Sequence record: OZ346186.1
DNA: 50,013 nt
Source: a phage
Reading direction: 5' to 3' (one strand)
A program made the translations under genes and the position numbers. The notes under the pieces are model-generated. The model was not told the DNA's origin. It made no database searches and saw only the letters and a program-made list of their open reading frames with translations. Below, in pieces: positions 20,224 to 47,409 of this stretch (positions are counted from its first letter, which is position 1; each line of letters begins with the position of its first letter).

Positions 20224-20267
20224 ACTATACACGATCTTGCGGCGGTCGTTTAGCAAAAAGTGCTATT
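20224..20267 (-). promoter_or_regulatory. conserved box (variant) + TATAGT, promoter cassette for Cor-like lipoprotein gene
   Basis: minus-strand box 20249-20267, -10-like 20224-20229, 18-nt spacer. Confidence 0.5.
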
Positions 20268-20340
20268 CTGTTCTTTTTGTTTTCCTGCGTTCTCAAATCT
20301 GCGGAGGCGTAAATTTAGCGCAAAAAGTGAGCAACAATAG

Positions 20341-20520
20341 AGCGTAATAAATACAGATAAATATATATATATATATATAAATCAATAAGTTAGCAGTATA
20401 TATATTTATATTTGTTTTTTCTTGTTATCTATGTTTTGTGTGATTTTGTGTGTCTGGTAATTTTATGTGGTTGTGTATGTGTCAGTGATTGTGTGTGTCT
20501 ATATATCTATATACGGCGCA
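20341..20520. repeat. AT-rich (TA)n and GT-rich low-complexity region with IHF-like site AATCAATAAGTTA; homolog of 40501-40720
   Basis: (TA)9 at 20361-20379; 15-mer aaatcaataagttag at 20379-20393; TGTG-rich 20431-20500. Confidence 0.6.
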
Positions 20521-20635
20521 AATGGAGGAACAAGAGAACAAAAAGACAACAAAGATATTTATCAATCACTTACATGTAAATTTTGTTATCCGATTCGCCT
20601 GGAACGTTGTTAGAACAGAAAAAACAAAATAACTG

Positions 20636-20663
20636 TTGACTAAACGCATTAAATAGCTAAAAT
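20636..20663 (+). promoter_or_regulatory. sigma70-like promoter TTGACT-16-TAAAAT upstream of exonuclease gene
   Basis: hexamers read directly at 20636-20641 and 20658-20663. Confidence 0.45.
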
Positions 20664-20692
20664 GCAGGCATACCAACAAACGAGGGCAAATA

Positions 20693-21754
20693 ATGAATAA
20701 GTTTATGGCGTACACCAGCGAAGAAATGAGCAACGAGCTTTATCACGATCCAGAAGCGTGGACGGCTGATTATGTTAGCGGTTCAAGCCTGGCAGAGATT
20801 TACAGCACATGCCCGGCAGCGTGGAAGTTCAAGCCGCGTGACGATAAGAGCAAGGCGCTAGTTTTTGGTACGCAGTCGCATACCAACTTTGAAAGCAAGG
20901 AGCTTTTCGAAAAAACTTATCGCCGTGCGCCAGCGCCAGAAGACTTTAAGGATCTGATAACCAGCCAAACGGCGCTTGCTGCAAAGCTGAAATCATTTGG
21001 CCTGAAAGGTACAACCGGAAAGACTTACCCCGAACTTATAAAAATGATGGTTGACTGCGGAGAAGACCTTAACGTCATGTGGTTAATCGACATGATCGCA
21101 GAAAGTCAGGCCAGGGCCGATGGGGTTCAGTTAATCGAGGCTAAAGATTACGATTCGTGCGTGGCAATGCGCCAGGTTCTGGAATCAATACCGGAACATA
21201 ACGCATGTATGAATAGCAAGACGGCACAGCGTGAATTATCGTTGTTCGGTGAAATTAACGGCGTAAAAGTCAAAGTGCGATGCGATCACGTTGACGTAAC
21301 AAAGAACGTCACCGCAACGCTGATTGATGGTTACGATGAAAAAGGCCAGCCGATTTGCCGCGATATTATTTATCCAGAGGCCATTGTGATCACAGACTAC
21401 AAAACTACAATGAGCGCGAATCCGGCTGAGTTTATGCGCCTGGCTTACAATCACGGCTATTATTTGAAAATGGCGTTGCAATGTGATTTATTCAGAAAAG
21501 CGTATCCAGAAGAAAAGCGACCTATAGTTGTGCGACTGTTAGCGCAAGAGAAGAAAGAGCCTTATTTGCCGTTGGCTTTCCGCATGAATAGCGAGCAGTT
21601 GAAGATCGGGCGCATTCAGTACATGAGCGTGATTAACCAGTTTGCCATGTGCCAGCAACATGACGTTTGGCCTTCGTATTCAAACGGTGAGCCTGAGGTT
21701 TGCCTTGATACTCCTGATTGGGTGCGCCGCCAGTTTAAGCAATATCTTATTTAA
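20693..21754 (+). CDS. recombination exonuclease (PD-(D/E)xK, RecE/lambda-Exo-like, putative)
   Basis: 353 aa; ITDYK motif; adjacent to Erf and SSB genes. Confidence 0.45.
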   Translation: MNKFMAYTSEEMSNELYHDPEAWTADYVSGSSLAEIYSTCPAAWKFKPRDDKSKALVFGTQSHTNFESKELFEKTYRRAPAPEDFKDLITSQTALAAKLKSFGLKGTTGKTYPELIKMMVDCGEDLNVMWLIDMIAESQARADGVQLIEAKDYDSCVAMRQVLESIPEHNACMNSKTAQRELSLFGEINGVKVKVRCDHVDVTKNVTATLIDGYDEKGQPICRDIIYPEAIVITDYKTTMSANPAEFMRLAYNHGYYLKMALQCDLFRKAYPEEKRPIVVRLLAQEKKEPYLPLAFRMNSEQLKIGRIQYMSVINQFAMCQQHDVWPSYSNGEPEVCLDTPDWVRRQFKQYLI

Positions 21755-21835
21755 ACAGCACAAATAGCTAAACAAATGAAAAATGCGGTGTTATAATTCA
21801 CCGCACAAGTTAACAACAAGCGTGAGGAAATAAAC

Positions 21836-22114
21836 ATGGAAAACAAGCAAGTGTCAGAGGTGGCAGTTCATATCAACAATTTTGCAACTGGCATGGCTAT
21901 GTTGCTTCGTGACTTTGTGGCGCCACTTGATCCAACTGCAGGCGAAGAAGAAATGGAGTACATCAGAAAAGTAATTGATGCGGTCGATAACGTCGTACTT
22001 ATTGCAACAATGAGCGAAGACAACGATGAAGCAATCAAGGCGGTAAAAGAAAGTTCTGATCGCATGATGGAAAATCTGATTAAATTACACACCAAAGAAG
22101 AAACAAAGCACTAA
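21836..22114 (+). CDS. hypothetical acidic protein
   Basis: 92 aa, Asp/Glu-rich; SD gtgagga; lies between exonuclease and Erf. Confidence 0.55.
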   Translation: MENKQVSEVAVHINNFATGMAMLLRDFVAPLDPTAGEEEMEYIRKVIDAVDNVVLIATMSEDNDEAIKAVKESSDRMMENLIKLHTKEETKH

Positions 22115-22159
22115 CAGCAATAAGGCGGCGAAAGCCGCCATGAATTATGGGAATTAATC

Positions 22160-23301: not shown

Positions 23302-23306
23302 TCAGC

Positions 23307-27105: not shown

Positions 27106-27162
27106 ATGCACCTCAAACAAAAAAAAGCCTGACAGATGATAACATCATGCCAGGCATTGTTT

Positions 27163-27636
27163 TTAGCAATTAGTGCTTTCAGGTTTATACAGGAATCCTC
27201 CAGGTTCATAATCTGACATTCTTACCACTCGCAACATTTCACGCTTATCACATCTCTTTGTGAGCGGTTTGCCATTGGAATCAAATCGCAGATCTGGACG
27301 GCAGAATGACGCGCGATAGCCTTGACAACCATATTTCTTGTAATCGTTATGCACCTTTTGAGCGCCAGCGGCTGAAATCATACCGCGAACGCGCCACTGA
27401 TTTACAGTTTGCTGGCTAACGTTAAGACGCTTTGCCATTGCTGACACGCTGCCGTAATACTCAATAAGAATGTCAAGCCGTGCTTTTAGTCCGGCGCGCA
27501 CTTCATCTTTTAAAACATAGTATCCTGTAGGGCGCTTGCGCTTTTTCTTATCTTTACCCCGTCGAGTTCCGTTATTGCCATTAATTGTGCGCTTGTCAAT
27601 CTTGCCTGTTGATACTGCGATTCGCTGTTCTTTCAT
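27163..27636 (-). CDS. HTH DNA-binding protein (putative transcription regulator)
   Basis: 157 aa; basic N-terminus (KDKKKRKR) and helix-turn-helix-like AKRLNVSQQTVNQWR. Confidence 0.45.
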   Translation of the reverse strand: MKEQRIAVSTGKIDKRTINGNNGTRRGKDKKKRKRPTGYYVLKDEVRAGLKARLDILIEYYGSVSAMAKRLNVSQQTVNQWRVRGMISAAGAQKVHNDYKKYGCQGYRASFCRPDLRFDSNGKPLTKRCDKREMLRVVRMSDYEPGGFLYKPESTNC

Positions 27637-27648
27637 TATTCATTCTCC

Positions 27649-27692
27649 AATAGCATTTTTTGTTAAACGATGATTTAATGATTGTGTATTAT
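27649..27692 (+). promoter_or_regulatory. conserved box AATAGCATTTTTTGTTAAAC + 18-nt spacer + TATTAT (promoter cassette for helicase operon)
   Basis: box 27649-27668, -10-like 27687-27692; divergent from HTH regulator gene. Confidence 0.5.
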
Positions 27693-27725
27693 ACACGCCA
27701 AATGGCATTACTCAAAGGTTTTAGA

Positions 27726-29765: not shown

Positions 29766-30171
29766 TAAAGGCGATTATCTGGAGTTTTACGAAAGAGATC
29801 CGACAGATACTCTGAAAGAGGAATCGCACCAGATCGGGGCGTTTCAATGGGTAACTTATGCTCATCCTGAATTACTGGCATGGCATACGAAAAACGAGGG
29901 CGACAAGGGAATCGCCACCGCAATGATGGATCAGCAAGCCGGACTCGTTAAGGGCGTAAGTGATTTTATCATCCTGATTGGATTAAAAGGCCGTTACCCG
30001 TTTGCAGCAATTGAGATGAAACGCGTCAATAAGTCAGGCAAGGGGAAGGCTTCACCAGTCAGCAAGGAGCAAAAAGCCTTCTTGCGCCGTGTGCGTGAGC
30101 TTGGCGGATTCGCTGCCGTAACATACGGATATAAGCAATTCATGATCGCGGTAGAATACATGATGAAATAG
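29752..30171 (+). CDS. VRR-NUC domain nuclease
   Basis: 139 aa; D...E.K nuclease core (DFIILIG...AIEMKR) typical of VRR-NUC, commonly paired with phage helicases. Confidence 0.6.
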   Translation: MAMTDKGDYLEFYERDPTDTLKEESHQIGAFQWVTYAHPELLAWHTKNEGDKGIATAMMDQQAGLVKGVSDFIILIGLKGRYPFAAIEMKRVNKSGKGKASPVSKEQKAFLRRVRELGGFAAVTYGYKQFMIAVEYMMK

Positions 30172-30211
30172 CACTTTTTGTTAAAACAGGCGCGAAGGAT
30201 TGCGCCATAAT
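30167..30211 (+). promoter_or_regulatory. conserved box + hairpin + CATAAT (promoter cassette upstream of dam)
   Basis: box 30167-30187 includes stop TAG of VRR-NUC gene; hairpin ggcgc..gcgcc; -10-like 30206-30211. Confidence 0.5.
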
Positions 30212-30245
30212 AACACCAGTTCAACAAGCAACAGGTAATTAAGAA

Positions 30246-30947
30246 ATGAGCAAAGAAACCGAAGTGACATTTGAACAAATAGAACGCGAAACATTCATTG
30301 GCAATGCTCTCGCTACTGGTGGTCATTACCAGGCTGTTAAACCAAATCAATATTTCAAAGTGACTGGCAACCGATATAACGGCAGCAATACGCCGGACAT
30401 TGTGCGCGATTTGTGGTCTACGCCGTATGAGCTTGTCGCATGGATGGAAAGCGAATACGGTGATTATGACATCGACGCGGCGGCAAGCAAAGAAAATGCT
30501 GTATGTGAAAAATTCTACAGCAAGGAAACAAATTGCTTAAAGCGTTGGTGGGGTAGTAATAAGCATATATGGCTGAATCCACCGTACAGCAATATTACTC
30601 CATTTGTTAAGAAGGCGATTGAGCAAATGGAGCACAACAACCAGATCGACATTCTGTTACCTTGCGACACGTCAACAGGATGGTTTTATGAGGCGCAGCA
30701 GCGCGCAGCGGAAATCATCTGGATCACTGGCGAAGTTTACCAGGAGGACGGAACAGAATATTCCCGCACAGGACGCCTTGCGTTTACCTCGGCTCTTACA
30801 GGTAAGCCAGTGCAGGGAAACAACAAAGGAAGCGTTATTTTCATCATGCGCGAACTTAAAGAAGGTGAGCAGCAGAAAACTCGATACGTTAAAATCAGCG
30901 ACATTTGCCCTTCGGTGGCAGACCGTCGCGCACGGAAACGGAGCTAA
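30246..30947 (+). CDS. dam: DNA N6-adenine methyltransferase (Dam-like)
   Basis: 233 aa with NPPY catalytic motif (LNPPYS). Confidence 0.75.
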   Translation: MSKETEVTFEQIERETFIGNALATGGHYQAVKPNQYFKVTGNRYNGSNTPDIVRDLWSTPYELVAWMESEYGDYDIDAAASKENAVCEKFYSKETNCLKRWWGSNKHIWLNPPYSNITPFVKKAIEQMEHNNQIDILLPCDTSTGWFYEAQQRAAEIIWITGEVYQEDGTEYSRTGRLAFTSALTGKPVQGNNKGSVIFIMRELKEGEQQKTRYVKISDICPSVADRRARKRS

Positions 30948-30951: not shown

Positions 30952-31209
30952 ATGCAAAAAGAAAGAAGCGTTTATTTAAATGAAACTGGCGAATGGTTGT
31001 TATTTCGCGCTATGGTATGCGATTCACTTGATAAAAACCCTAACGTGAAAAAGATGATTGATTGCGATCCGTGGGAATTTTCAAGCGCATTAGATATGAG
31101 CTTTGAGGAGACAAAAAAACTCCCGCTTGAAAAATGGAACGAGAAAATCAGAAATGACATGCAAGAATTTGTCGATTCGTGGAATTTTCAGCACGGAATA
31201 ATCCACTAA
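30952..31209 (+). CDS. hypothetical protein
   Basis: 85 aa from ATG 30952 (SD ggag); track ORF 30604..31209 is the same frame extended over dam. Confidence 0.55.
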   Translation: MQKERSVYLNETGEWLLFRAMVCDSLDKNPNVKKMIDCDPWEFSSALDMSFEETKKLPLEKWNEKIRNDMQEFVDSWNFQHGIIH

Positions 31210-31252
31210 TAGCACTTTTTGTTAAAACGCCCGACCTTGTGTCGGGCATAAT
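31208..31252 (+). promoter_or_regulatory. conserved box + hairpin + CATAAT
   Basis: box 31208-31228; hairpin gcccgac..gtcgggc; -10-like 31247-31252. Confidence 0.5.
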
Positions 31253-31284
31253 TATTTCATCAAAACGAACAAGAGGAAAACAAA

Positions 31285-31782: not shown

Positions 31783-31794
31783 GGAGAATTTTTG

Positions 31795-32910
31795 ATGAAG
31801 CAAATCAAAATCACAGATGAACAATTTATCAATGAGCGCAAGCAGGGAAAGACATATAAGCAGATCGCTAATGAGTATGGTATGAACGTTCGCAGCATTG
31901 AGCGACGCGCGGCACGATTAGCAAAGCAAGGTAAAGTTACAACCATCGGATCACCTGGTTTTGGTGTTACTGGAGAATCAAAGCTAATTGATAAAGATGG
32001 CAATGTGGTTATGACATGGATTAAGACAAGTAAGGACCGCGAACAGTTAGAAGCATTAATGCAGGCCGCTATGGATGCATTTAGCGAAGAAGTTCCTCGA
32101 CTTGATCCACAGCCAGAATCACAAAAGGATTATAGCGAGACGTTATCACTGTATCCGATCTTTGACATGCACTTGGGCGCAATGGCGCATAAGCATGAAT
32201 GCGGCGAGAATTGGGATACAGCAACAGCAGAGCGCGTAATGAATAATTTCATTGATTATTCCATCCAGTGCGCTCCTGATAGTGAAAAAGCTGTTTTGCT
32301 GATTGGTGGTGATATGCTTCACAGCGACGGACTGGAAGCGGTAACGCCTGCAAGCGGTCACGTATTAGATCAAGATAGTCGATACGCAAAACTTGTTTAT
32401 GTTGCCATCCGGTCAGTGCGTAGAGCAATCACAAAGCTGTTATCAAAACACAAAAACGTCGAGATTCAGATTATTGAAGGAAACCACGACCAAAGCGGCA
32501 TGATCTGGTTGCGCGCAGCAATGGCGGCAGCATATGAGAATGAGCCACGAGTGCATGTTGATGTGTCTCCGCGAGTAGTTCATCACACACAATATGGCAA
32601 AACGTTCCTGGCATACCATCACGGGCATACTATCCGCAAACCTGAAACGTTGCTTATGATGTGCGCGGCAGACTGGCGAGAAGACTTCGGTAATTCAAAA
32701 ATGATGTATGCTCACGTAGGGCACTGGCATCATCAGACAGTAACTGAAACAAGCCTGGGCATTGTTGAAGTGCATAGCACTATGGCGGCAAAAGATGCAT
32801 ATGCGGCGCGCGGTGGATGGCGTTCTCGTCGCCGTGCGGCTGTTATTGTTTATGATAAAGAATACGGAGAAGTAGGGCGATTTATGCATTATCCAGAAAT
32901 GGCTGGTTGA
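31795..32910 (+). CDS. HTH domain fused to Mre11/SbcD-type metallophosphoesterase
   Basis: N-terminal HTH-like KTYKQIANEYGMNVRSIERRAARL; phosphoesterase motifs DMH, GGDMLH, GNHD, GHWHH. Confidence 0.55.
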   Translation: MKQIKITDEQFINERKQGKTYKQIANEYGMNVRSIERRAARLAKQGKVTTIGSPGFGVTGESKLIDKDGNVVMTWIKTSKDREQLEALMQAAMDAFSEEVPRLDPQPESQKDYSETLSLYPIFDMHLGAMAHKHECGENWDTATAERVMNNFIDYSIQCAPDSEKAVLLIGGDMLHSDGLEAVTPASGHVLDQDSRYAKLVYVAIRSVRRAITKLLSKHKNVEIQIIEGNHDQSGMIWLRAAMAAAYENEPRVHVDVSPRVVHHTQYGKTFLAYHHGHTIRKPETLLMMCAADWREDFGNSKMMYAHVGHWHHQTVTETSLGIVEVHSTMAAKDAYAARGGWRSRRRAAVIVYDKEYGEVGRFMHYPEMAG

Positions 32911-34396: not shown

Positions 34397-34429
34397 TTTT
34401 AAAATCCTCATATTCGTTTCGATGAAACA

Positions 34430-34474
34430 AATATACCCGATACGAGATCGGGAGTCTTAACAAAAAGTGCTATT
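34430..34474 (-). promoter_or_regulatory. conserved box + hairpin + TATATT (minus strand)
   Basis: box 34454-34474 includes stop of 34470..34664; hairpin cccgat..atcggg; -10-like 34430-34435. Confidence 0.5.
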
Positions 34475-36569: not shown

Positions 36570-36596
36570 TGATGATAACTCCTTTTTGATGCGGCA

Positions 36597-36641
36597 ATAA
36601 TACCGCACCAATGCTACCCGCATTTAACAAAAAATGCTATT
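36597..36641 (-). promoter_or_regulatory. conserved box (variant) + TATTAT, upstream of replication ATPase gene
   Basis: box 36621-36641 includes stop TAG of 36637..36858; -10-like 36597-36602. Confidence 0.5.
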
Positions 36642-36858: not shown

Positions 36859-37241
36859 TTATACATAGCCTCAAACAAATGACAGCCACCAGCGGAAAAC
36901 CCTACTTCTTCGCGGTATAGCGTCCAGCGGTCGCCAGCTTCATCAAACACATAACCAGCAACAGCGCCAAGCGCGCGGCCTTGCTCAATCTGGTAGCGCT
37001 TTCCTTCTTTGAAATGCTTTTTACAAGGGATCTTGTGATCTACAAAGGTGCATTTAATTGTTTTTGTCTTGATATGACGATAGTCAGACTCAACAGCGTT
37101 TTGCCACTTACTACCCTTTGTAATGCTCTTTACCTGGAATTGTTCCAACTCGATCACATCATCGCTACCAGCAATTTTTTCGTATACAGCTTTATAACGA
37201 CCGTTCATCAAAACGTTGGTTTTATTGCAGATAACTTTCAT
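36855..37241 (-). CDS. hypothetical Cys-containing protein
   Basis: 128 aa; SD aaggag; downstream of box promoter 37272-37317. Confidence 0.55.
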   Translation of the reverse strand: MKVICNKTNVLMNGRYKAVYEKIAGSDDVIELEQFQVKSITKGSKWQNAVESDYRHIKTKTIKCTFVDHKIPCKKHFKEGKRYQIEQGRALGAVAGYVFDEAGDRWTLYREEVGFSAGGCHLFEAMYK

Positions 37242-37271
37242 CGTTTATTTCTCCTTTCGTTTCGGTGAAGT

Positions 37272-37317
37272 GATTATGCCAGGCTTTTACACCTGGCTTT
37301 TAACAAAAAGTGCTATT
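37272..37317 (-). promoter_or_regulatory. conserved box + hairpin + ATAATC (minus strand)
   Basis: box 37297-37317 includes stop TAG of methyltransferase-like gene; hairpin gccagg..cctggc; -10-like 37272-37277. Confidence 0.5.
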
Positions 37318-38414: not shown

Positions 38415-38642
38415 TCATACAGCCTTCCAGCTTTCAATAAACATGCTGTTTTCTTCCAGCAGTTTAATCAATTCTTCGCGCGTGTATTTGCGGATTTTAC
38501 TACCTGGATGTGAGCCAACAACAAACACACCTTTACCACTCGTGATTGTTAACTGGTTGATTCCGCAAGATTTATCCATCTTAATTGCGACGCGGTGATG
38601 TGCATCAACAGTGTTCATGATGTTAGTAACTTTAGCTTTCAT
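38415..38642 (-). CDS. hypothetical protein
   Basis: 75 aa from ATG 38642 (SD gagga); downstream of box promoter 38673-38715. Confidence 0.55.
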   Translation of the reverse strand: MKAKVTNIMNTVDAHHRVAIKMDKSCGINQLTITSGKGVFVVGSHPGSKIRKYTREELIKLLEENSMFIESWKAV

Positions 38643-38672
38643 TATGCAATCCTCATTATATTTGGTGTGATA

Positions 38673-38715
38673 ACTATACCAGGTTTGAGAAATATTGTTT
38701 AGCAATTCGTGCTAT
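38673..38715 (-). promoter_or_regulatory. conserved box (variant ATAGCACGAATTGCTAAAC) + TATAGT (minus strand)
   Basis: box about 38697-38715; -10-like 38673-38678. Confidence 0.45.
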
Positions 38716-38816
38716 CAGTTGAAATAGCTATGGCGCTTTGCTCGCTTGCCGTCTCCGCCATAATGATCATTTGCAACAGCTACCATCCAGGAATTATGGA
38801 ATATTATTAGCTTCAT
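38715..38816 (-). CDS. hypothetical 33-aa ORF
   Basis: hand-translated; stop TGA abuts box copy as in real genes, but no SD. Confidence 0.2.
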   Translation of the reverse strand: MKLIIFHNSWMVAVANDHYGGDGKRAKRHSYFN

Positions 38817-39098
38817 CTAATTAATGCCAACAACGTTAAAACTTACAGCTTTTGTTGCGCTAAATACATACGCTTCAACAGCCTCACCAAATACACGAAT
38901 TTTTCCATAGCCGTACTGCGAATTCATATTGCGCCAAACCGTCCTGTTAGAACAGAACGCGTTACCAGTCTTGATAAGATTATCCATCTCTTTTCTTAGG
39001 TCATGATAATCAAGCCAGAATCTATAAGCGCGTTGTTTAATGAGTTGCGCCTTGATTGTTTCGGCTGAGTTTTTAAAATCGCTGTTTTTGTATGCCAT
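38817..39098 (-). CDS. hypothetical protein
   Basis: 93 aa; start overlaps upstream stop. Confidence 0.55.
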   Translation of the reverse strand: MAYKNSDFKNSAETIKAQLIKQRAYRFWLDYHDLRKEMDNLIKTGNAFCSNRTVWRNMNSQYGYGKIRVFGEAVEAYVFSATKAVSFNVVGIN

Positions 39099-39292
39099 TA
39101 CACAACCTCCATAAAAGTATTGAATCCACGCAGTTTGAAAGCATTGCCATGTTTAACAACGTTCCATGTCAGGCCGGAGTGATACGCAACCATATCCTCA
39201 AGATCAATTGTGATGATAGCGCCTTTCTTAAAGATTCCTTTCTCGTGAGTGGTGTCACGCTGTACAACTTTAACATCAACCTGATTTTCCAT
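39098..39292 (-). CDS. hypothetical protein
   Basis: 64 aa from ATG 39292 (SD gagga); downstream of box promoter. Confidence 0.5.
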   Translation of the reverse strand: MENQVDVKVVQRDTTHEKGIFKKGAIITIDLEDMVAYHSGLTWNVVKHGNAFKLRGFNTFMEVV

Positions 39293-39322
39293 TTTTTTAA
39301 TCCTCGTTCGTTGTCGATGCGC

Positions 39323-39369
39323 ATAATATACCAATCAGAGGCGCATCGGTTTTAACAAAAAGTGCTATT
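39323..39369 (-). promoter_or_regulatory. conserved box + TATTAT (minus strand)
   Basis: box 39349-39369 abuts stop TAA of 39369..39635; -10-like about 39323-39328. Confidence 0.5.
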
Positions 39370-39894: not shown

Positions 39895-40163
39895 TTCTTG
39901 ATCTCCTCAGCGATAAACTTCAGGACTTTGCGCAAAAACACTTCATTATTGATGGTCGCTGGCAATTCTTCTTTTACTTCTTGCGGCAGGTAAACGTTGC
40001 CATGCCAGGTTAAGCAATCGTAGTTGATACGATAAGAGCAAAGCCACTCGCAATCGTTATCCGCTTCCCAAATGCAGAGTTGCAGAACATCACCGAAATC
40101 CTCAACAGTCAGATCCAGACCGTGACGCTTTGCAAAGTTGAAAGTGGTTTTGCTGATGTTCAT
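39891..40163 (-). CDS. hypothetical protein (first gene of leftward early block)
   Basis: 90 aa; SD caggag; downstream of box promoter 40201-40246. Confidence 0.55.
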   Translation of the reverse strand: MNISKTTFNFAKRHGLDLTVEDFGDVLQLCIWEADNDCEWLCSYRINYDCLTWHGNVYLPQEVKEELPATINNEVFLRKVLKFIAEEIKK

Positions 40164-40200
40164 TTGCTTTCTCCTGATGGGTATCTCGTTTCGATGTGTG

Positions 40201-40246
40201 CATTATGCCGAATCCAGTCAGGCACGTTTTAACAAAAAGTGCTATT
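40201..40246 (-). promoter_or_regulatory. conserved box + ATAATG (minus strand), first promoter of leftward early block
   Basis: box 40226-40246; -10-like 40201-40206. Confidence 0.5.
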
Positions 40247-40500: not shown

Positions 40501-40720
40501 AACAAAAAGAACAAAATAAAATTTATATATATACCCATAAAATCAATAAGTTAGTTATATATGTATTTATATTTGTTATTTACTGTTGAGCTTGTTATAT
40601 GGGTATATGGTGGGGTGGTATTGTTTGTGGTGATATGTATGTGTGATTGTATATTTTTTAATCAATGGTGATGTGTGGTGATTTTTGTATGTATATATAT
40701 GGGTATGGAGCAATCCTCCG
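40501..40720. repeat. AT-rich and GT-rich low-complexity region with IHF-like site; homolog of 20341-20520
   Basis: same 15-mer at 40540-40554 followed by similar tatat..tatttatatttgtt and GTG/TGG-rich stretch. Confidence 0.6.
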
Positions 40721-40899
40721 TCAACCAAGTCAACAAGGTCATTTTTAACAGAAAAACCAATGACTTAACTGAAGCATTTTGTTATCTTTAAACGCGCCAC
40801 ATGACAAAAATTGTTATTAAAACACAAAAATACATTGACACGTATGAAAGGCAAGGCAATAATGCATCCAGTTTAAACGCAACAAAAGGAGTAGACGCC

Positions 40900-41385
40900 A
40901 TGAGCGAAGAAAATATTAGCACCATGTCGCGTAGTGAGTTCTGCGATATGCTTCGCAGCCTGGGTGCGGCAATTGGTAGCGGCGAGCGTAACAATGTATT
41001 CATGCCAGCACTTTTCTTGTGCGCTAACGTGGAGAACGGCGACGCAATTACAGCATCGTACATGCGCCAGGTTGTAAACCGCGTACCAGAAGTGAAGCAA
41101 AAAGGCGTGATCAGCATTAAGCGAAAGGTGACTGATGAGGGTGATGGCTTTGTGTTTACGCTCACAGAAGCCAAAAGCAAGCCACGCGTTCTGACTGGTG
41201 AAGAAATCGACGAGATCGCAGAAAAGCGCGCAGAGAAGGCGGTAAGCAAAATTCTTAATCACCTGGTAAGCGTAATGCCAAATATCACAGACCTGGAAGG
41301 CGACAAACTTGCTGGAGCGTGTGAGGCTATCGGGCGCTACCAGGATATGATTCGTAAACTCGCTGGAGGAAAAGAGGATGAATAA
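40900..41385 (+). CDS. hypothetical protein (first gene of rightward block)
   Basis: 161 aa from ATG 40900 (SD aaaggag); track ORF from 40801. Confidence 0.55.
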   Translation: MSEENISTMSRSEFCDMLRSLGAAIGSGERNNVFMPALFLCANVENGDAITASYMRQVVNRVPEVKQKGVISIKRKVTDEGDGFVFTLTEAKSKPRVLTGEEIDEIAEKRAEKAVSKILNHLVSVMPNITDLEGDKLAGACEAIGRYQDMIRKLAGGKEDE

Positions 41386-41638
41386 GGCATTAATTGGAGT
41401 TTTGATTGCAATTGCTACCCTGACCGGATGCGAAAAGGCATCGGAATCAACGGTTGTCGTAGGCGTGGAGTCAGATTTCAAAGTCGGTCGCCTGTTCACT
41501 GTTGACGGATGCACAGCATACAGATTCTATGATAACGGTCGCGCGATCTATTACACCAATTGCAAAGGCGCAACGGATAGCACGTACAACAGCGGAAAGA
41601 ACGTAATGCACCAGCAAGTCACAACAGATATTAAATAG
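41378..41638 (+). CDS. lipoprotein
   Basis: 86 aa; signal peptide MNKALIGVLIAIATLTGC nearly identical to that of the Cor-like gene; stop TAG embedded in box. Confidence 0.55.
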   Translation: MNKALIGVLIAIATLTGCEKASESTVVVGVESDFKVGRLFTVDGCTAYRFYDNGRAIYYTNCKGATDSTYNSGKNVMHQQVTTDIK

Positions 41639-41678
41639 CACTTTTTGTTAAAACGCCAGGCGCAAAACCTGGCATAAT
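41634..41678 (+). promoter_or_regulatory. conserved box + hairpin + CATAAT
   Basis: box 41634-41654 includes stop TAG; hairpin gccagg..cctggc; -10-like 41673-41678. Confidence 0.5.
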
Positions 41679-41710
41679 AGCCTCATCGAAACGAGATTGA
41701 GGAAAACAAA

Positions 41711-41896
41711 ATGGCACGTCGCATCACCAAAGACCTTAAAGTCCTGAACAAAGAAAACGTAGTTAAAATTCTGGTTATCTGGGGCTACAACGAAGAAACA
41801 GCAAAGCAGAAGGTAGAGGCAGGTTATGACCTGGCTGTAAAAGCAATGCCAAACGACGACGCCAAAGGAATTGCAAACTATGTAGCTTTCTTTTAA
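41711..41896 (+). CDS. hypothetical protein
   Basis: 61 aa; SD gagga; conserved leader. Confidence 0.5.
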   Translation: MARRITKDLKVLNKENVVKILVIWGYNEETAKQKVEAGYDLAVKAMPNDDAKGIANYVAFF

Positions 41897-41911: not shown

Positions 41912-42097
41912 ATGAAAACGAAATTAGTCCATAAATCAGAAATCAAGATCGGCGATACTGTGATTCACAACGGAGAGCTTAGAACGGTTGGCAAAGAGTC
42001 AATAAGCCACGATGAATTTATGGGGATTTTGTTGTTCGGTGACTCTTATCGTCTTGGTTACAAGATGGTTGAGCTTGTGGAAGAAGTGAAATTCTAA
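41912..42097 (+). CDS. hypothetical small protein
   Basis: 61 aa; SD aggtga; pattern SEIKIGDTV...G.LRTV shared with 42345..42527. Confidence 0.5.
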   Translation: MKTKLVHKSEIKIGDTVIHNGELRTVGKESISHDEFMGILLFGDSYRLGYKMVELVEEVKF

Positions 42098-42141
42098 ATA
42101 GCACTTTTTGTTAAAACTCAAAAACGATAACCAGGCATAAT
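42097..42141 (+). promoter_or_regulatory. conserved box + CATAAT
   Basis: box 42097-42117; -10-like 42136-42141; followed by about 200-nt leader. Confidence 0.5.
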
Positions 42142-42344
42142 AAATCACATAGACGGGCGGCAAGGATTGCTGCGGGAGAGGAGCAACGCAGGGGCTTGAT
42201 CGAAGTGTCATGATTCCCAACCGTTAGGCCAGAACTATCACACTCGCCACCAGGCAGAACGCTAGATAGGTCACTGAGCTGAGGCTACCGACGAAGTGAA
42301 GCCCGTCACCAAAGATTAAACGATTATTTATGTGAAAGGGGTTA

Positions 42345-42595: not shown

Positions 42596-43501
42596 ATGTT
42601 AAAACTTGCTGACATTAAATTCCCGATCACCTTCGAATCTCGCGGCGTTGGTCATTTCATGTTTACCGACGAGAAGACATGCACTAAGTTTAACGAATAC
42701 GGAAGTCCAAACGCTTCAACAATGGAGATTGAACACTTCATTGAAGCGCACAATAAACACTACAACTCACTCAGAGACTACGGTTACGCAATGCCAGGCT
42801 ACACTTGCTTGCACTATAAGCCATACAGGGGCCAGGTGTTACCAGTGCGCTCACCGGAACGCGCAGAGATTCCGATGGTCCATATGAAAACCTGCGACTA
42901 CAAAAAGCTGTGGTGCTTAAGTGTGGACAATATCAAGTATCCGATCACGTTCCATACGACTGGTAACTCAACGATTCGCTTCACATCACGCGACAATGGC
43001 GTTTATAGCGATGGTACGAAATCAGAGTTGAAAGTTGATTTCTTTGTTAATGGTCACAACAAATTCAATCCACACAATGAAGAGGATAAGGTGTACTACG
43101 TGGAAGATATTACAAAACACTTGTTTGGAGAAACACCATTCGGCGGCGGAAAGACGTCAATTCAGAAAATCATTGGCGAGGAGATCCACAAAGCTGCTAC
43201 CGAAATGAAAGCGCCTGGAGGCTGTAAGATTGATAAAAGCGACCTTGTCACCATTCGTTCAAAGATTGGCGGAGTTGAATACGAGGGCGCAATTGAAAAA
43301 ATGCCGCTCGGCGCTTCAATCATCGGCATCAAAGACGACAACGGCGATTGGCATGATGTTTCTTTCCCGATCAAGCGTATCGAAGTGCACGACGACTTGA
43401 TTTGCCTCCTGGCGCATCATGGTAGCTATAAGAACAATCCGTTCTCCGCAGAGCTAAACATCAAGCGCGGAACGATGGTTAAGTGGAAGGTTAAAGTGTA
43501 A
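42596..43501 (+). CDS. hypothetical protein with internal tandem domain duplication
   Basis: 301 aa from ATG 42596 (SD caggag); two repeats each containing IKFPITF / IKYPITF. Confidence 0.55.
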   Translation: MLKLADIKFPITFESRGVGHFMFTDEKTCTKFNEYGSPNASTMEIEHFIEAHNKHYNSLRDYGYAMPGYTCLHYKPYRGQVLPVRSPERAEIPMVHMKTCDYKKLWCLSVDNIKYPITFHTTGNSTIRFTSRDNGVYSDGTKSELKVDFFVNGHNKFNPHNEEDKVYYVEDITKHLFGETPFGGGKTSIQKIIGEEIHKAATEMKAPGGCKIDKSDLVTIRSKIGGVEYEGAIEKMPLGASIIGIKDDNGDWHDVSFPIKRIEVHDDLICLLAHHGSYKNNPFSAELNIKRGTMVKWKVKV

Positions 43502-43544
43502 ATAGCACGAATTGTTAAAACTCAAATGTGGGGCCAGGTATAAT
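43501..43544 (+). promoter_or_regulatory. conserved box (variant AATAGCACGAATTGTTAAAAC) + TATAAT
   Basis: box 43501-43521; -10 43539-43544 inside inverted repeat ggcc..ggcc. Confidence 0.5.
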
Positions 43545-43574
43545 GGCCTCACTTTCAACGAAGGGGATAAAACG

Positions 43575-44564: not shown

Positions 44565-44722
44565 CCTGGTTACTTTTAATCTTTGTCACAAGTTACAACT
44601 CCGCCGCTATTGAATCGCAAGAGTTCCACGGCGAATCAAGATGCCAGGAAGCACGAAAACAAGTTATTCTCCACATGTCAGATAGTGGGAAAGATGTAAC
44701 AGCGTTATGCGTTCGTAAATAG
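44561..44722 (+). CDS. 53-aa small secreted/membrane protein
   Basis: hand-translated; hydrophobic N-terminus MTWLLLIFVTSYNSAA; ATG overlaps upstream stop; stop TAG embedded in box. Confidence 0.4.
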   Translation: MTWLLLIFVTSYNSAAIESQEFHGESRCQEARKQVILHMSDSGKDVTALCVRK

Positions 44723-44762
44723 CACTTTTTGCAAAAACAGATTGTCGGGCTTGCTGTATAGT
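44718..44762 (+). promoter_or_regulatory. conserved box (variant ..TTTGCAAAAAC) + TATAGT
   Basis: box 44718-44738 includes stop TAG; -10-like 44757-44762. Confidence 0.5.
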
Positions 44763-44793
44763 AAGCCCATCTACAACAAACGAGGATTAAATC

Positions 44794-45272: not shown

Positions 45273-45433
45273 GTTGAGATAACAACATGAGATCATGAAG
45301 ATGCGAAACTTCGAAAAAATCGTATCCAAGAAGAAGCGATACAGCTACTACGAGCACCAAGAGATGAATTAACGCTATCGCAAAAAGCGCCAGCGCAAAG
45401 GTAAACATTCCAGTAAACATGGAGAAAATCAAT

Positions 45434-46024
45434 ATGAAACGAGACATTATCATCCTTAACGGACCGCCAGGAGTTGGCAAAGATACGATTGCGGCATACT
45501 TAACGGGTCATCGTTACGCAGCGGTTAAAGCGTCATTTAAACAGCCTATGTTCGATATTGCATTCTCCATGCTTGGCGTTTACCGATATGACGAGTTCAT
45601 TGATCTGTATAACGACCGCGAGCAGAAAGAAAAGCCTCAAGCAATCTTGCAAGGCAAGTCGCCTCGCCAGTTCATGATCTGGATTAGCGAAGAAGTCATG
45701 AAGCCAGCTTTTGGCGAGCAATATTTTGGGGATCGCATGGTTGAGCAAGTACACGAGATGTACAGAGATTTAGCTGTTGTAATTAGTGATGGCGGATTCC
45801 CTGAAGAAATCAAGCCGCTCGTTAAGGCAGGCCATGAAGTTCACATTTGCCGACTGCATCGCGAAGGATTCACGTTTGATGGCGATTCGCGAAACTATAT
45901 TGACCTGAGCGGATACCATCACCGAGTCAAGCATTACGACTTCACAATGACTGATGGCGAGCCAGAAAAGACTGTTGACGAGATCATCAAAACTGTCCAG
46001 TGGAAACACATTAAGATTGAATAG
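45434..46024 (+). CDS. deoxynucleoside monophosphate kinase (T4 Dnk-like)
   Basis: P-loop GPPGVGKDT and QGKSPRQ segment resembling T4 gene 1 kinase; start 45434 has SD ggaga (track start 45419). Confidence 0.6.
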   Translation: MKRDIIILNGPPGVGKDTIAAYLTGHRYAAVKASFKQPMFDIAFSMLGVYRYDEFIDLYNDREQKEKPQAILQGKSPRQFMIWISEEVMKPAFGEQYFGDRMVEQVHEMYRDLAVVISDGGFPEEIKPLVKAGHEVHICRLHREGFTFDGDSRNYIDLSGYHHRVKHYDFTMTDGEPEKTVDEIIKTVQWKHIKIE

Positions 46025-46064
46025 CACGAATTGCTAAAAGCGGGGCGCAATGCCTCGCTATAAT
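46020..46064 (+). promoter_or_regulatory. conserved box (variant ATAGCACGAATTGCTAAAA) + TATAAT
   Basis: box 46020-46039 includes stop TAG of kinase gene; -10 46059-46064. Confidence 0.5.
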
Positions 46065-46094
46065 GCAAACACCAATCAACGAGAGGAAATCATC

Positions 46095-46496
46095 ATGGTA
46101 GAGTTAAACGACATTCGCGTTGGAACAAAATTTCGCGTAACCTGGGCAGATAAATATTGCGGAGTTAGTAAGGGCCAGGTTGTTACTGTGGATAGTATTT
46201 ATCGCGGATGCAGCAAAGACTTTCGCCGCCCACGCATCAAGAATGGCTATATCATTACTCGCCGTTTTGGCTTTGATCATTATTGCGTAGTGGCCACTCA
46301 AGGAGTTTTGATTGAGCTTCAGCGGATCAGCGATCATCGCGGCTGTCATGTCAAAACAACGAAGATACCATCTCAGCGATCGCGATACGATGCGCGCAGG
46401 ATGCGCAGGCTTGCACGAAACGCGATCAAGTTCAAAAAGCCTGGTGGTAACTTTTACCGAATGTACAAAGGGATTGCGCGAAATGCTGGAAAATAA
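46095..46496 (+). CDS. hypothetical basic protein
   Basis: 133 aa from ATG 46095 (SD gagagga); basic C-terminus. Confidence 0.5.
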   Translation: MVELNDIRVGTKFRVTWADKYCGVSKGQVVTVDSIYRGCSKDFRRPRIKNGYIITRRFGFDHYCVVATQGVLIELQRISDHRGCHVKTTKIPSQRSRYDARRMRRLARNAIKFKKPGGNFYRMYKGIARNAGK

Positions 46497-46614
46497 CAAC
46501 AACGCAACCAATCCAAAGCCGCCATTTGATTTTCATGAAATCATGATTGTGTTATTCTTTATTCTCTTAGTTATTTATTCAGTGAGGGCCGCACTATGGT
46601 TTTTAACGCACTAA
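46483..46614 (+). CDS. 43-aa membrane peptide
   Basis: overlaps both neighbours; SD aaggga; hydrophobic C-terminal half. Confidence 0.3.
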   Translation: MLENNNNATNPKPPFDFHEIMIVLFFILLVIYSVRAALWFLTH

Positions 46615-46859
46615 AACGAATCTTTAAACCTGAATACCGGATCGTTGCTTGCACAGAATGCAAGATTTATTATCTGCAACGCCGCCGCGTTATTAGTGGG
46701 GATTGGGAATATCTGACTGATGATGCTTTCGGCTTTTGGGCTATGGAGTTCAATAGCTACAGCGAAGCGCGTGAATACGCTAAAAAGTTGCACAAGTTCC
46801 GACCTTACAAACTGCGTTTGCTGGTTGTCAAAAAATGCGATGTGTGGGATCACGAATGA
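46596..46859 (+). CDS. hypothetical protein
   Basis: 87 aa; SD gaggg. Confidence 0.5.
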   Translation: MVFNALKRIFKPEYRIVACTECKIYYLQRRRVISGDWEYLTDDAFGFWAMEFNSYSEAREYAKKLHKFRPYKLRLLVVKKCDVWDHE

Positions 46860-47035
46860 AAAGAGTAATTATCATTTTTATTGCCGTTATCGCTGGTTGT
46901 TACCTGGCTTATAATTATAGCGGCATTGTTGAGTCAATCGGCGGGTTGATTATCTTCATGGCTGGTGGGTATGCTGGCTATTGTGATGGATTCGAAAACG
47001 GAAAGCGTTACATGCTGACCGGAAAAAAGAAGTAA
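46856..47035 (+). CDS. small lipoprotein/membrane protein
   Basis: 59 aa; N-terminal MKRVIIIFIAVIAGC with lipobox-like IAGC; ATG overlaps upstream stop. Confidence 0.4.
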   Translation: MKRVIIIFIAVIAGCYLAYNYSGIVESIGGLIIFMAGGYAGYCDGFENGKRYMLTGKKK

Positions 47036-47078
47036 TGCTAACCGCGCCGCTTCGGTGGCGCTAAAAGGAGGAAACAAA

Positions 47079-47366
47079 ATGGCTAAAAGCAATCGTAAAA
47101 TGTTGATTAACGCATTCGAAAAGGCGGCGCTTGAGCGTGGTTGGAATGACTCATTTCACACGGCAAACTGTATCCGCCGTTACGGATTCAAGAATTGTCG
47201 CTCATGGGCGCGTCAAATGGCTTCATGGTATGATCTTGATGCGCATTACCTTGATATGGATTGCGCCCTGGTTGAAATGATTGAGCAGGCCGCATTAGAG
47301 GATCGACCATTAACGCAATCTGATTTTGACGATTTTGTGCGCGATGAAATCTATTACATGAGCTAA
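47079..47366 (+). CDS. hypothetical protein
   Basis: 95 aa from ATG 47079 (SD aaaggagg). Confidence 0.5.
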   Translation: MAKSNRKMLINAFEKAALERGWNDSFHTANCIRRYGFKNCRSWARQMASWYDLDAHYLDMDCALVEMIEQAALEDRPLTQSDFDDFVRDEIYYMS

Positions 47367-47409
47367 TAGCACTTTTTGTTAAAACTTCCGCGAGGGCATT
47401 TGTTAAAGT
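47365..47409 (+). promoter_or_regulatory. conserved box + TAAAGT
   Basis: box 47365-47385 overlaps stop TAA; -10-like 47404-47409. Confidence 0.45.

Follow-up and report, generated by a model that had tools for sequence, protein, structure and literature searches.

A repeated 21-base box in a phage genome matches the host marbox and probably marks class II MarA/SoxS/Rob-dependent promoters

The window analyzed here, a 50,013-nt stretch of DNA of a T1-like phage (sequence record OZ346186.1), carries a family of repeated 21-base boxes. A search with AATAGCACTTTTTGTTAAAAC returned 15 matches with three or fewer mismatches against 0.02 expected, a count reached by none of 100 shuffles, and looser searches together with an independent weight matrix bring the family to 21-22 copies. 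An earlier sequence-only reading had recognized about 19. Its positions are all correct to within 1-2 nt (the copy it placed at 38697 (-) is real, but lies at 38696-38716), and the boundaries it set, 20224 and 47409, correspond to the outer edge of the first -10 hexamer and that of the last. Copies that it missed lie at 9581-9601 (-), 5821-5841 (-) and 27160-27180 (-), with a degenerate one at 21754-21774 (+) and a vestigial one at 15495-15515 (+). The middle triplet of the box is variable (TTT, GAA, AAA or TAA), every variant fitting N-W-W; the copy at 46020 (+) has five mismatches to the search consensus because it belongs to the GAA subtype. Motif searching of the window and of related phages, as that reading had proposed, showed that the box recurs with its consensus conserved, in 696 records of phages of E. 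coli, Shigella, Salmonella, Klebsiella, Citrobacter and Enterobacter. A 2024 re-annotation of phage TLS describes the same 21-nt direct repeat in TLS, T1, Rtp and Rogue1 (PMC11447400).

Most boxes form part of a module; the copies are described below, each with its score in bits against a weight matrix built from 33 E. coli MarA ChIP-seq sites alone and, for some, with its offset from the G of GCAC to the -10 hexamer. At the left end of the early region, module 20217..20267 (-), with a box at 20247-20267, a -10 TATAGT at 20224-20229 and a predicted start at 20217, would drive a cor-like gene starting at 20192 (17.5 bits, offset 34). The degenerate module 21754..21804 (+), AACAGCACAAATAGCTAAACA, has a stem bracketing its -10 TATAAT at 21792-21797, a predicted start at 21804 and a gene start at 21836 (16.4 bits, offset 34). 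The window's best match, GCACTAATTGCTAAA, lies in module 27129..27180 (-) and equals the published MarA consensus (19.5 bits, offset 35). This module overlaps the 3' end of the pir gene, its -10 TATCAT (27136-27141) falls within the loop of the pir terminator hairpin, and it is predicted to drive a primase gene, the same arrangement being present in T1 at 35995 (-). Beyond pir, module 27649..27699 (+), with its box at 27649-27669, -10 TATTAT at 27687-27692 and predicted start at 27699, would serve a helicase gene (ATG 27726; 15.3 bits, offset 34); the canonical sigma70 promoter of pir itself overlaps it back to back.

Module 30167..30218 (+), orthologous to T1 Pdam, precedes the dam methyltransferase gene (ATG 30246) and contains the upstream TAG inside its box, a spacer hairpin GGCGC-N8-GCGCC and a -10 CATAAT at 30206-30211 (17.0 bits, offset 35). 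In module 31208..31259 (+), a spacer hairpin GCCCGAC-N5-GTCGGGC that passes a terminator scan and shows compensatory changes in orthologs is followed by ATAATTATTT, a -10 CATAAT (31247-31252) and a gene start at 31285 (17.0 bits). Six modules then face leftward. Module 34423..34474 (-) has a terminator-like spacer hairpin CCCGAT-N5-ATCGGG followed by TATATTTGTT, a -10 TATATT at 34430-34435 and a gene start at 34396 (14.0 bits); module 36590..36641 (-), in which the stem GCGG/CCGC brackets the -10 TATTAT at 36597-36602, would drive a second helicase gene (ATG 36569; 15.3 bits, offset 35). Module 37266..37317 (-) combines a spacer hairpin GCCAGG-N7-CCTGGC with a -10 CATAAT at 37273-37278 and a gene start at 37241 (17.0 bits), and the GAA-subtype module 38666..38716 (-), GATAGCACGAATTGCTAAACA, has its -10 TATAGT at 38673-38678 before a gene start at 38642 (18.7 bits, offset 34). 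An 8-bp stem, CGATGCGC...GCGCATCG, brackets the -10 TATATT (39325-39330) of module 39318..39369 (-), with a gene start at 39292 (17.0 bits). The predicted first promoter of the leftward early gene block is module 40195..40246 (-), with -10 CATAAT at 40202-40207 and a gene start at 40163 (17.0 bits).

Rightward copies resume with module 41634..41685 (+), which has a spacer hairpin CCAGG-N7-CCTGG, a -10 CATAAT at 41673-41678 and a gene start at 41711 (17.0 bits). Module 42097..42148 (+; -10 CATAAT at 42136-42141; 17.0 bits) shows no clear hairpin and has a longer leader with no assigned gene. Stems bracket the -10 in the GAA-subtype module 43501..43551 (+; GGCC/GGCC around TATAAT at 43539-43544; gene start 43575; 18.1 bits, offset 34), in module 44718..44769 (+; GGGCTT/AAGCCC around TATAGT at 44757-44762; gene start 44794; 15.9 bits), whose GCACTTTTTGCAAAA may be compared with the E. 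coli xseA site gcattttttgcaaaa, and in module 47365..47416 (+; GAGGGCA/TGTCCTC around TAAAGT at 47404-47409; gene start 47442; 17.0 bits). The GAA-subtype module 46020..46071 (+) has the core GCACGAATTGCTAAA, a -10 TATAAT at 46059-46064 and a gene start at 46095 (18.7 bits). Among the late genes, a full module at 9550..9601 (-) points against transcription between the major tail protein gene and the next late gene, with a -10 TAGCAT at 9557-9562 (17.0 bits, offset 35), a position kept in T1 at 18850 (-). A box at 5821..5841 (-), also against the late genes and just before the major capsid gene, has a poor -10 (15.3 bits), with counterparts conserved in T1 (15086 (-)) and in TLS (DR7). The copy after the large terminase gene, 1565..1585 (+), is degenerate, as had been recognized at 1566; a true terminator follows it, and there is no -10 at module spacing (14.2 bits).

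These features indicate that the boxes belong to promoters, as the sequence-only reading had proposed. A -10-like TAnnnT hexamer lies at a fixed distance, and in 198 unique modules from 47 related sources the positions outside the selection are informative: G at -14 (1.14 bit), A at -11 (1.1), T at -10 (0.99), T at -7 (1.2), and C at -1 and A at +1 (1.06). Spacing is indeed fixed, but at 18 bp (or 17) rather than over the 17-19 bp first given. Among 227 unique high-scoring boxes, the best -10-like hexamer is at offset 35 in 141 and at offset 34 in 34, weak box matches giving a flat profile; in all, 77% of copies keep the 17-18 bp spacing to a conserved -10 and start site. The lack of a correctly spaced -35 was also borne out (mean match to TTGACA at 17 bp spacing, 2.05/6), and the early region holds no excess of canonical promoters (33 found, 41.6 expected). 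The G at -14 suggests extended -10 promoters, which tolerate a missing -35. Of the 19 proper modules, 18 have a box oriented like the gene that follows and one, 9581-9601 (-), does not; the predicted start lies 21-32 nt upstream of the start codon in 16 of the 18 modules oriented with a gene. A conserved 5' leader, A(+1)TCGAAACGA, had gone unseen. Overlap with the upstream stop codon holds for 13 of 21 boxes: the TAA or TAG that closes an upstream ORF of 45 codons or more falls at box positions -1 to 5. This use can account for part of the 5' conservation (AATAG).

A second feature not seen earlier is a GC-rich stem-loop that overlaps the core promoter in 88% of modules, either filling the spacer or bracketing the -10. 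The 198 modules have a mean folding energy of -11.3 kcal/mol (z = -3.1, with 74% at z < -2), compared with -4.9 kcal/mol (z = -0.04) for control segments, and orthologs keep the stem through double, compensatory changes to an extent reached by one of 500 shuffles. Each module therefore appears to be a terminator-like/promoter cassette. Structural selection on the hairpin would also be expected if box and hairpin formed an RNA-level unit, a processing, termination or antitermination signal in which the hexamer is a mere AU-rich tail; a terminator scan accepts several of the hairpins, in sense or antisense orientation, and the T1 and TLS annotators labeled some of them terminators. We regard this as highly improbable. 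Many hairpins have no U tract, the hexamer bears a sigma70 signature (invariant A at -11, T at -7, G at -14) with the conserved C(-1)A(+1) at the correct distance, and an RNA element needs no DNA-binding consensus with class II spacing.

By its sequence the box is a near-consensus marbox, the site of MarA, SoxS and Rob, host regulators of stress responses and antibiotic resistance. Against the MarA ChIP-seq consensus gcactaattgctaaa (PMC5684230), GCACTAATTGCTAAA matches at 15 of 15 positions and GCACGAATTGCTAAA at 14 of 15, with GCACTTTTTGTTAAA also present, and the box agrees with all 10 specified positions of the marbox search pattern gcannwwntgnnaaa (PMC12052159). The top 21 window matches to the MarA matrix are exactly the boxes, at 14.0-19.5 bits; 15 reach at least 16 bits, against 0.14 in shuffles, a score attained by 6 of the 33 E. 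coli sites themselves (leave-one-out median, 10.9 bits). The geometry is that of the archetypal class II promoter micF: the site is forward and centered near -41, and the -10 hexamer of micF, TAGAAT, likewise begins 35 nt after the G of GCAC. Class II promoters are defined by a forward site near -41, no recognizable -35 and a canonical -10 (PMC10268841, PMC9638938, PMC9178005), and a mean -35 match of 1.9 has been reported for those of Salmonella, versus the 2.05/6 of the phage modules. We consider it likely that each box provides the site from which MarA, SoxS or Rob activates a class II sigma70 promoter.

The A/T-rich center of the box, upstream of the -10, invites another account, in which the box is an intrinsic, activator-free RNA polymerase element that combines an UP-element-like alpha-CTD site with a displaced -35-like TTG. 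An UP element is among the functions suggested in the TLS paper (PMC11447400). The presumed tolerance of a missing -35 would fit, as would the assay of T1 box promoters with host components only: GFP reporters of 150-bp T1 fragments that carry box modules (Pdam, Porf65) were measured in phage-free E. coli W3110, and Pdam was also assayed in an E. coli cell-free extract (PMC6737242). We nonetheless find this account rather improbable. Conservation is strongest in GCAC and in TTG/TAAA, placed as in marboxes, rather than in the A/T tracts; the TTG is displaced upstream by 5 bp (half a helical turn) from the position that sigma region 4 reads; and the middle variation obeys the marbox rule N-W-W.

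The sequence-only reading had instead suggested a phage-specific promoter class that might need a phage factor. The near-perfect host marbox, the class II geometry and the fact that no AraC-type protein was detected among the window-encoded proteins make this probably not the case, and neither candidate it named fits. The gene 27163..27636 (-) encodes an ortholog of Pir/Orf23, a Cro/YdaS-like helix-turn-helix regulator 60% identical to T1 Orf23 (phrog_2856; Pfam YdaS and P22_Cro matches below threshold). The second, given as 31795..32910, is a DNA repair exonuclease gene at 31792-32910 (+) (phrog_704, E = 1.7e-151), whose lone helix-turn-helix signal is a sub-threshold HTH_28 match. A phage-encoded reader, whether Pir or a small early protein acting as a class II-type activator or sigma-appropriation factor, is still worth weighing. 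In T1, Pir acts as an activator of the box promoter Pdam and as a repressor of its own promoter, one that spans a box (PMC6737242), and the many early ORFs with no Pfam match could hide an unrecognized DNA-binding fold. The same source reports no effect of Pir on the box promoter Porf65. Because of this, and because Pir has a single Cro-like helix-turn-helix, Pir is at most a modulator and not a general box reader. No homolog of T1 Orf65, the other known regulator, was found in this phage. An unrelated protein would also have to copy a 15-bp asymmetric specificity together with the exact MarA/SoxS/Rob spacing. The box consensus does not co-vary with Pir: it stays unchanged in clades where Pir identity ranges over 57-100%, as would be predicted for a box read by a conserved protein of the host. 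Finally, the T1 reporters were measured in cells free of phage, the basal levels not being stated in the accessible text. We judge a phage reader unlikely.

In the mechanism that we favor, a monomer of a host AraC-family regulator would bind the asymmetric 20-bp site, most likely the constitutive, abundant Rob in unstressed cells and MarA or SoxS under stress (in Klebsiella and Salmonella also RamA). One helix-turn-helix would read GCAC (about -47 to -44) and the other (C/T)TAAA (about -37 to -33), centering the site near -41, where a -35 hexamer is normally required. Contacts with sigma region 4 and the alpha C-terminal domain would then recruit host RNA polymerase to the -10, 18 bp downstream and often with G at -14, and the conserved A 7 nt past the hexamer would be the first transcribed base of a 21-32 nt leader with AUCGAAACGA at its start and a GAGGA ribosome-binding site at its end. 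On both strands, about 19 such modules would drive replication genes as well as early and accessory ones, and each is packed into about 76 nt from the upstream stop codon, inside the box, to the next start codon. The variable-sequence stem-loop most likely forms in upstream read-through RNA, as a terminator, insulator or 3'-end stabilizer; transcripts from the module's own start do not contain the 5' arm and so would escape it.

Such dependence looks risky for a fast lytic phage, since MarA and SoxS are scarce without stress and Rob is described as largely sequestered and inactive (PMC5684230). The G at -14 could give appreciable factor-independent activity, leaving the marbox a mere modulator, and the effect of Pir on T1 Pdam implies that phage proteins also act on these promoters. 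We found no report in the open-access literature of rob, marA or soxS mutants resistant to T1-like phages; redundancy among the three genes would hide resistance in single-gene screens.

Oriented, intergenic, genome-wide sites also recall the mycobacteriophage stoperators, an analogy drawn in PMC11447400, and some 20 near-optimal sites in every copy of the phage genome would together outnumber the regulator molecules of a cell (for SoxS, about 2500 are quoted in PMC9638938). The boxes might thus serve mainly as binding sites, either stoperator-like roadblocks or decoys that soak up MarA/SoxS/Rob during phage DNA replication and thereby blunt the host stress/efflux response. We think this very improbable: neither role needs the fixed distance to a conserved -10 and start, and no repressor or lysogeny circuit that could use stoperators is known from this phage family. 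Titration of regulators could still be a side effect of real promoters.

The closest known systems are the class II MarA/SoxS/Rob (RamA) promoters of Enterobacteriaceae, such as micF, lpxC P2, lpxL P1 and rfaY P1. They share a canonical -10 and start site and the asymmetric 20-bp activator site, in which A/T-rich sequence parts the GCAC A site from the (C/T)AAA B site; it lies forward near -41, where it overlaps and replaces the -35. The 35-nt distance is shared with micF. Unlike these chromosomal promoters, the phage boxes occur in a virulent genome in about 20 near-identical copies that outscore most chromosomal sites, fused to an upstream stop codon and a GC-rich stem-loop in a cassette of about 76 nt, known here from sequence. 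The PeSLs (promoter-early stem-loops) of T4-like phages (PMC2839356, PMC4122927) are likewise short, repeated terminator/promoter cassettes that join a stem-loop to a host-polymerase promoter. They too are set among small early or accessory genes, and both kinds of cassette could plausibly be substrates of modular gene shuffling, but PeSLs contain ordinary sigma70 early promoters with no activator site and belong to a different phage family with a different sequence. T4 middle promoters also lack a -35, for which an activator site substitutes beside a sigma70 -10. Their MotA box, however, is centered at about -30 and read by phage-encoded MotA after AsiA remodels sigma, whereas the phage box lies near -41 and matches a host regulator, no MotA/AsiA-like system being evident.

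The direct repeats aaATAGCACnnnTTGnTAAAA of T1-like phages are the same element as the box, agreeing with it in consensus, in pointing the way of transcription and in lying about 76 nt from the start codon. The accessible part of PMC11447400 offers a stoperator, enhancer site or UP element, leaves the function open and makes no mention of a -10 at fixed spacing, of the hairpin or of the marbox identity. The repeat itself was thus already known, and its identity as a marbox is the new result. Given the near-perfect marbox match and its exact activating position, the phage probably uses MarA, SoxS and Rob of its host to switch on about 19 genes or operons.

The window is a T1-like siphovirus genome (Drexlerviridae, Tempevirinae) of 50 kb, 96-98% identical to Escherichia phages JLBYU09 and JLBYU41, Salmonella phage slyngel and Shigella phage pSf-1. 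Its repeated 21-nt box, AATAGCACTTTTTGTTAAAAC, is present in 15 copies at three or fewer mismatches (0.02 expected), and looser searches bring the family to 21-22 copies. When we searched the window again, the positions listed in the sequence-only reading proved essentially correct, and further boxes were found at 9581-9601(-), 5821-5841(-), 21754-21774(+) and 27160-27180(-). The overlap with stop codons described there also held: 13 of 21 boxes have the stop of the upstream gene at their positions -1 to 5. A -10-like hexamer, (T/C)AnnnT, does follow the box, at a spacing of 18 bp and sometimes 17 bp, not across the proposed range of 17-19 bp. We refer to the box together with this hexamer, the predicted start site and the leader as a module; in 16 modules the predicted start site precedes the start codon by 21-32 nt. 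The box is conserved in relatives: modules occur in T1, and whole-module matches were found in 696 phage records, whose named hosts are mainly Klebsiella, Escherichia, Shigella, Salmonella, Citrobacter and Enterobacter.

The box closely resembles the marbox, the DNA site of a family of host transcription activators. MarA, SoxS and Rob, and RamA elsewhere in the enterics, bind as monomers to an asymmetric site whose two parts are GCAC (the 'A site') and CAAA (the 'B site') (PMC9178005, PMC9638938). MarA ChIP-seq yielded the consensus gcactaattgctaaa (PMC5684230), and the same laboratory employs gcannwwntgnnaaa as a search pattern (PMC12052159). All 10 positions that this pattern specifies are matched by the phage cores GCACTTTTTGTTAAA and GCACGAATTGCTAAA, and agreement of the phage cores with the 15-nt MarA consensus ranges from 13 to 15 positions; an exact copy of the consensus, GCACTAATTGCTAAA, occurs at 27160-27180 of the window and at T1 39976. 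To guard against circularity, we built a weight matrix from 33 E. coli MarA ChIP-seq sites alone and scanned the window with it. The 21 best hits are exactly the boxes (14.0-19.5 bits), and 15 hits score at least 16 bits, compared with 0.14 in dinucleotide-preserving shuffles. On their own matrix, the E. coli sites have a leave-one-out median of 10.9 bits, with 6 of 33 scoring at least 16 bits.

The arrangement of the modules is that of a particular kind of MarA/SoxS/Rob promoter. In class II promoters, a forward marbox overlaps the -35 region with its center near -41, no -35 element is recognizable, and the -10 and start site are canonical (PMC10268841, PMC12052159, PMC9638938). Reading the micF promoter of E. 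coli K-12 directly, we found the G of GCAC 35 nt ahead of the first base of the -10 element TAGAAT. Offsets of 35 (141 sites) and 34 (34 sites) account for the best -10-like hexamer in 175 of 227 unique high-scoring phage sites, and the offset profile is flat for weak matrix hits. The ybjC marbox has a -10-like hexamer at an offset of 36, the -10 there being assigned in silico. The SoxS-type sites of nfo and sodA, taken as additional class II comparators, went undetected by the MarA-derived matrix. With the predicted start site as reference, the phage site is centered at approximately -40.5. In every module having a -10, GCAC...AAA reads toward the hexamer, with GCAC promoter-distal on the non-template strand, as in micF. 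The modules point toward the downstream gene, with the exception of an antisense copy at 9581-9601(-).

A box-anchored logo of 198 unique modules, drawn from 44 pir-gene neighborhoods in viral metagenome contigs plus T1 and pSf-1, defines the remaining promoter elements. Among positions outside the selection, information lies at -14 (G, 1.14 bit), -12 (T), -11 (A, 1.1), -10 (T), -8 (A), -7 (T, 1.2), -1 (C) and +1 (A, 1.06), a pattern characteristic of a sigma70 -10 with an extended -10 G and an optimal CA start, the start sites being predicted ones. Relative to the predicted start, the box runs from about -51 to -31, ATAGCAC occupying -50 to -44 and TTGnTAAA occupying -40 to -33. No -35 hexamer at proper spacing was found in the modules (mean TTGACA match, 2.05 of 6), and canonical sigma70 promoters are not enriched in the early region (33 observed, 41.6 expected). 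The extended -10 may confer some factor-independent activity. Judged by sequence, the phage modules have every feature expected of a class II MarA/SoxS/Rob promoter, and we consider it probable that the boxes are true MarA/SoxS/Rob sites acting as such.

A vestigial box, AATAGCACAAAAGGTGAAAAA, at 15495-15515(+) overlaps the ribosome-binding site and start codon of the gene for a 1141-aa tail protein and has an equivalent copy in TLS (DR8); it has no -10 downstream and is therefore not a promoter module. Two marboxes oppose the late structural operon, one in the module at 9550-9601(-) and one at 5821-5841(-). The former box (9581-9601(-)) has a proper -10, TAGCAT, and some 20 nt further on meets the major-tail-protein terminator in reverse complement. 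T1 retains both positions (18850- and 15086-), and the capsid-proximal one also corresponds to TLS DR7. These marboxes may give rise to short antisense RNAs.

The repeat itself is already known. According to the 2024 re-annotation of phage TLS (PMC11447400), TLS carries 21 copies of aaATAGCACnnnTTGnTAAAA, oriented with transcription and about 76 nt ahead of start codons; similar repeats are stated for T1, Rtp and Rogue1, and only three canonical sigma70 promoters are reported in TLS. The authors distinguish three repeat subtypes, TTT, GAA and AAA, offer a stoperator, an enhancer site or an UP element as guesses, and list function as an open question (PMC11447400). The three subtypes are the permitted N-W-W positions of the marbox. 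Literature searches for a link between T1-like phages and the marbox, MarA, SoxS or Rob found none, and an exact-string search for the box returned nothing relevant; recognition of the repeat as a class II marbox promoter seems to be new. The marbox reading answers the question raised for the TLS repeat in a directly testable way. It also explains an annotation puzzle, namely that canonical promoter searches yield almost nothing in these genomes.

The features of the modules bear on the earlier guesses and on other candidates. An UP element, the site of the alpha-CTD, follows an A/T-tract consensus that extends from -59 to -38, lacks conserved G or C and lies upstream of a functional -35; the box is best conserved at G, C, A, C and TTG, reaches -31 and is followed by no -35. 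Stoperators of the mycobacteriophage L5 type share with the boxes an oriented, intergenic distribution. They are asymmetric sites spread across transcription units and read by an immunity repressor, with no fixed relation to promoters, whereas the boxes keep a fixed distance of 17-18 bp to a -10; an immunity repressor is neither known nor detected here. The motif TAGCAC-N3-TTG(C/T) recalls a sigma54 promoter, TGGCAC-N5-TTGC, in which the GG and GC elements lie 10 bp apart and transcription starts about 12 nt after GC. The spacing in the phage motif is 2 bp too short, GG is absent and GC often so, and a sigma54 reading would leave the conserved -10 and start unexplained. The reverse complement, GTTTTAACAA, beside a hairpin is suggestive of an rrn boxA/nut-like element, but that strand is antisense to every gene. 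The T4 MotA box is wrongly positioned (-30 versus -41), and by-eye comparison with the IHF, Fis and CRP consensus sequences gave no fit.

If the box is a class II marbox, the question is which protein reads it. No AraC-type protein was detected in the window: tblastn with MarA, SoxS and the N-terminal domain of Rob revealed no phage MarA-like protein, nor did a 3-sequence HMM run over 549 six-frame ORFs (best E 0.1), and an HTH_18/AraC match was absent from Pfam results for 30 early ORFs. The box consensus is constant across clades in which the regulator Pir (T1 Orf23) retains 57-81% identity, which argues for a slowly evolving host reader. The sequence-only reading had suggested that a phage factor may be needed, naming two candidates. 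One, the ORF at 27163-27636(-), is the Pir ortholog (60% identical); the other, at 31792-32910, is a DNA repair exonuclease. In T1, the 150-bp Pdam and Porf65 fragments, within which we verified box modules, were measured as GFP reporters in phage-free E. coli W3110, the text consulted stating no basal levels; Pdam was also assayed in E. coli cell-free extract (PMC6737242). According to the same text, Pir activates Pdam and not Porf65 (PMC6737242), making it a modulator and not a general reader of the box. T1 Orf65, considered as a universal box binder, has no homolog in the window. Together, the lack of an AraC-type protein, the invariant box, the phage-free reporters and the selectivity of Pir point to a host protein as reader. 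Rob is constitutive and the tightest marbox binder among the host paralogs; MarA and SoxS need induction. We infer that Rob could provide basal use of the modules, with MarA, SoxS or RamA supplying a boost under stress. Rob has been described as largely sequestered (PMC5684230).

The promoters around pir have features of their own. Within 27640-27700 of the window, the pir promoter diverges from the helicase marbox promoter, and the two overlap back to back. In the corresponding T1 pair, both -10 hexamers fall on the same base pairs and the box is crossed by the 5' UTR of pir, so that any box-bound protein would also repress pir. The cor-recE intergenic region of T1 (29851-30377) contains several TGTAAC/GTTACA copies, including the palindrome TGTAAC-N10-GTTACA, and the pir promoter likewise contains TTGTAACG. 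Pir represses both promoters, and these sequences are candidates for its operators.

A GC-rich dyad overlaps the core promoter of most modules, either filling the 18-bp spacer (for example 31229-31247, GCCCGAC-N5-GTCGGGC) or bracketing the -10 (39318-39369). A significant stem-loop overlaps the core promoter in 174 of 198 modules. Across all 198, the 37-nt core segment has a mean folding energy of -11.3 kcal/mol (z = -3.1, with z < -2 in 74%), compared with -4.9 kcal/mol (z = -0.04) for control segments 300 nt downstream. Stem sequence varies from module to module, and among orthologs of one module the stem is kept via double changes (5 such cells; 1 of 500 shuffles attained this number). That stems differ between modules while pairing persists speaks against the hairpin being a shared protein operator. 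A simple terminator scan picks up some of the hairpins in the sense or antisense direction, and several have been annotated as terminators by the T1 and TLS annotators. At 27129-27180 the -10 sits in the loop of a true terminator; here, read-through RNA would terminate and transcripts begun within the loop would escape. The unit may thus be viewed as a composite cassette of stop codon, marbox, stem-loop, promoter and leader, with a putative role for the hairpin. It would work similarly to the PeSLs of T4-like phages, which also combine a repeated intergenic stem-loop with an early promoter (PMC4122927); the resemblance is functional only, the sequences being unrelated.

Other early-region elements stand apart from the marbox modules. 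The best canonical promoter match of the early region (TTGACA-17-AATAAT, 11/12; 40835-40863(+)) heads the rightward early block and is likely an immediate-early promoter comparable to TLS P01. It lies inside a long ORF call (40801-41385), and the true gene start is therefore probably further downstream. The recE-like gene has a canonical sigma70 promoter without a marbox at 20636-20690(+), TTGACT-17-TAAAAT. In the T1 version, at approximately 30320-30378, the promoter is followed by an A(+1)TCG(T)AAACGA...GGAG leader typical of marbox modules; the leader in the window, ATACCAACAAACGAGGG, is a looser match. The occurrence of such a leader without a marbox suggests a 5'-UTR design that is general to the phage family and not tied to the marbox. 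Two AT-rich/GT-rich low-complexity stretches at 20340-20520 and 40510-40710, one in each of the two zones of divergent transcription, share aaatcaataagttag...tatatttgtt and could be origin-like or packaging-related repeats. The small early ORF at 39098-39334(-) matches Pfam PF25180, 'Phage antiviral trigger protein Gp54' (E 2.8e-37).

If the marbox reading is true, this would be, within the searchable literature, the first virulent phage family with promoters built on the sites of host multiple-antibiotic-resistance and oxidative-stress regulators. The modules, at about 76 nt each, would also offer engineering parts: promoter cassettes that are compact, insulated and inducible. We speculate, tentatively and from sequence, that in T1-like phages (Drexlerviridae of enteric bacteria) most non-structural gene expression has come under the control of host MarA/SoxS/Rob/RamA. 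That the phage strongly depends on these regulators, or senses its host through them, is conceivable but the less probable outcome. [quoted passage not shown] With about 20 near-optimal marboxes in each copy, phage DNA would titrate the regulators as it replicates, and the host efflux and stress response would collapse. Through this titration of MarA/SoxS/Rob, infected cells could show altered expression of AcrAB-TolC and of porins; the related phage TLS uses TolC as its receptor. Phage development would then be tied to bile, salicylate, antibiotics and redox stress, with a bearing on phage-antibiotic synergy or antagonism in therapy.
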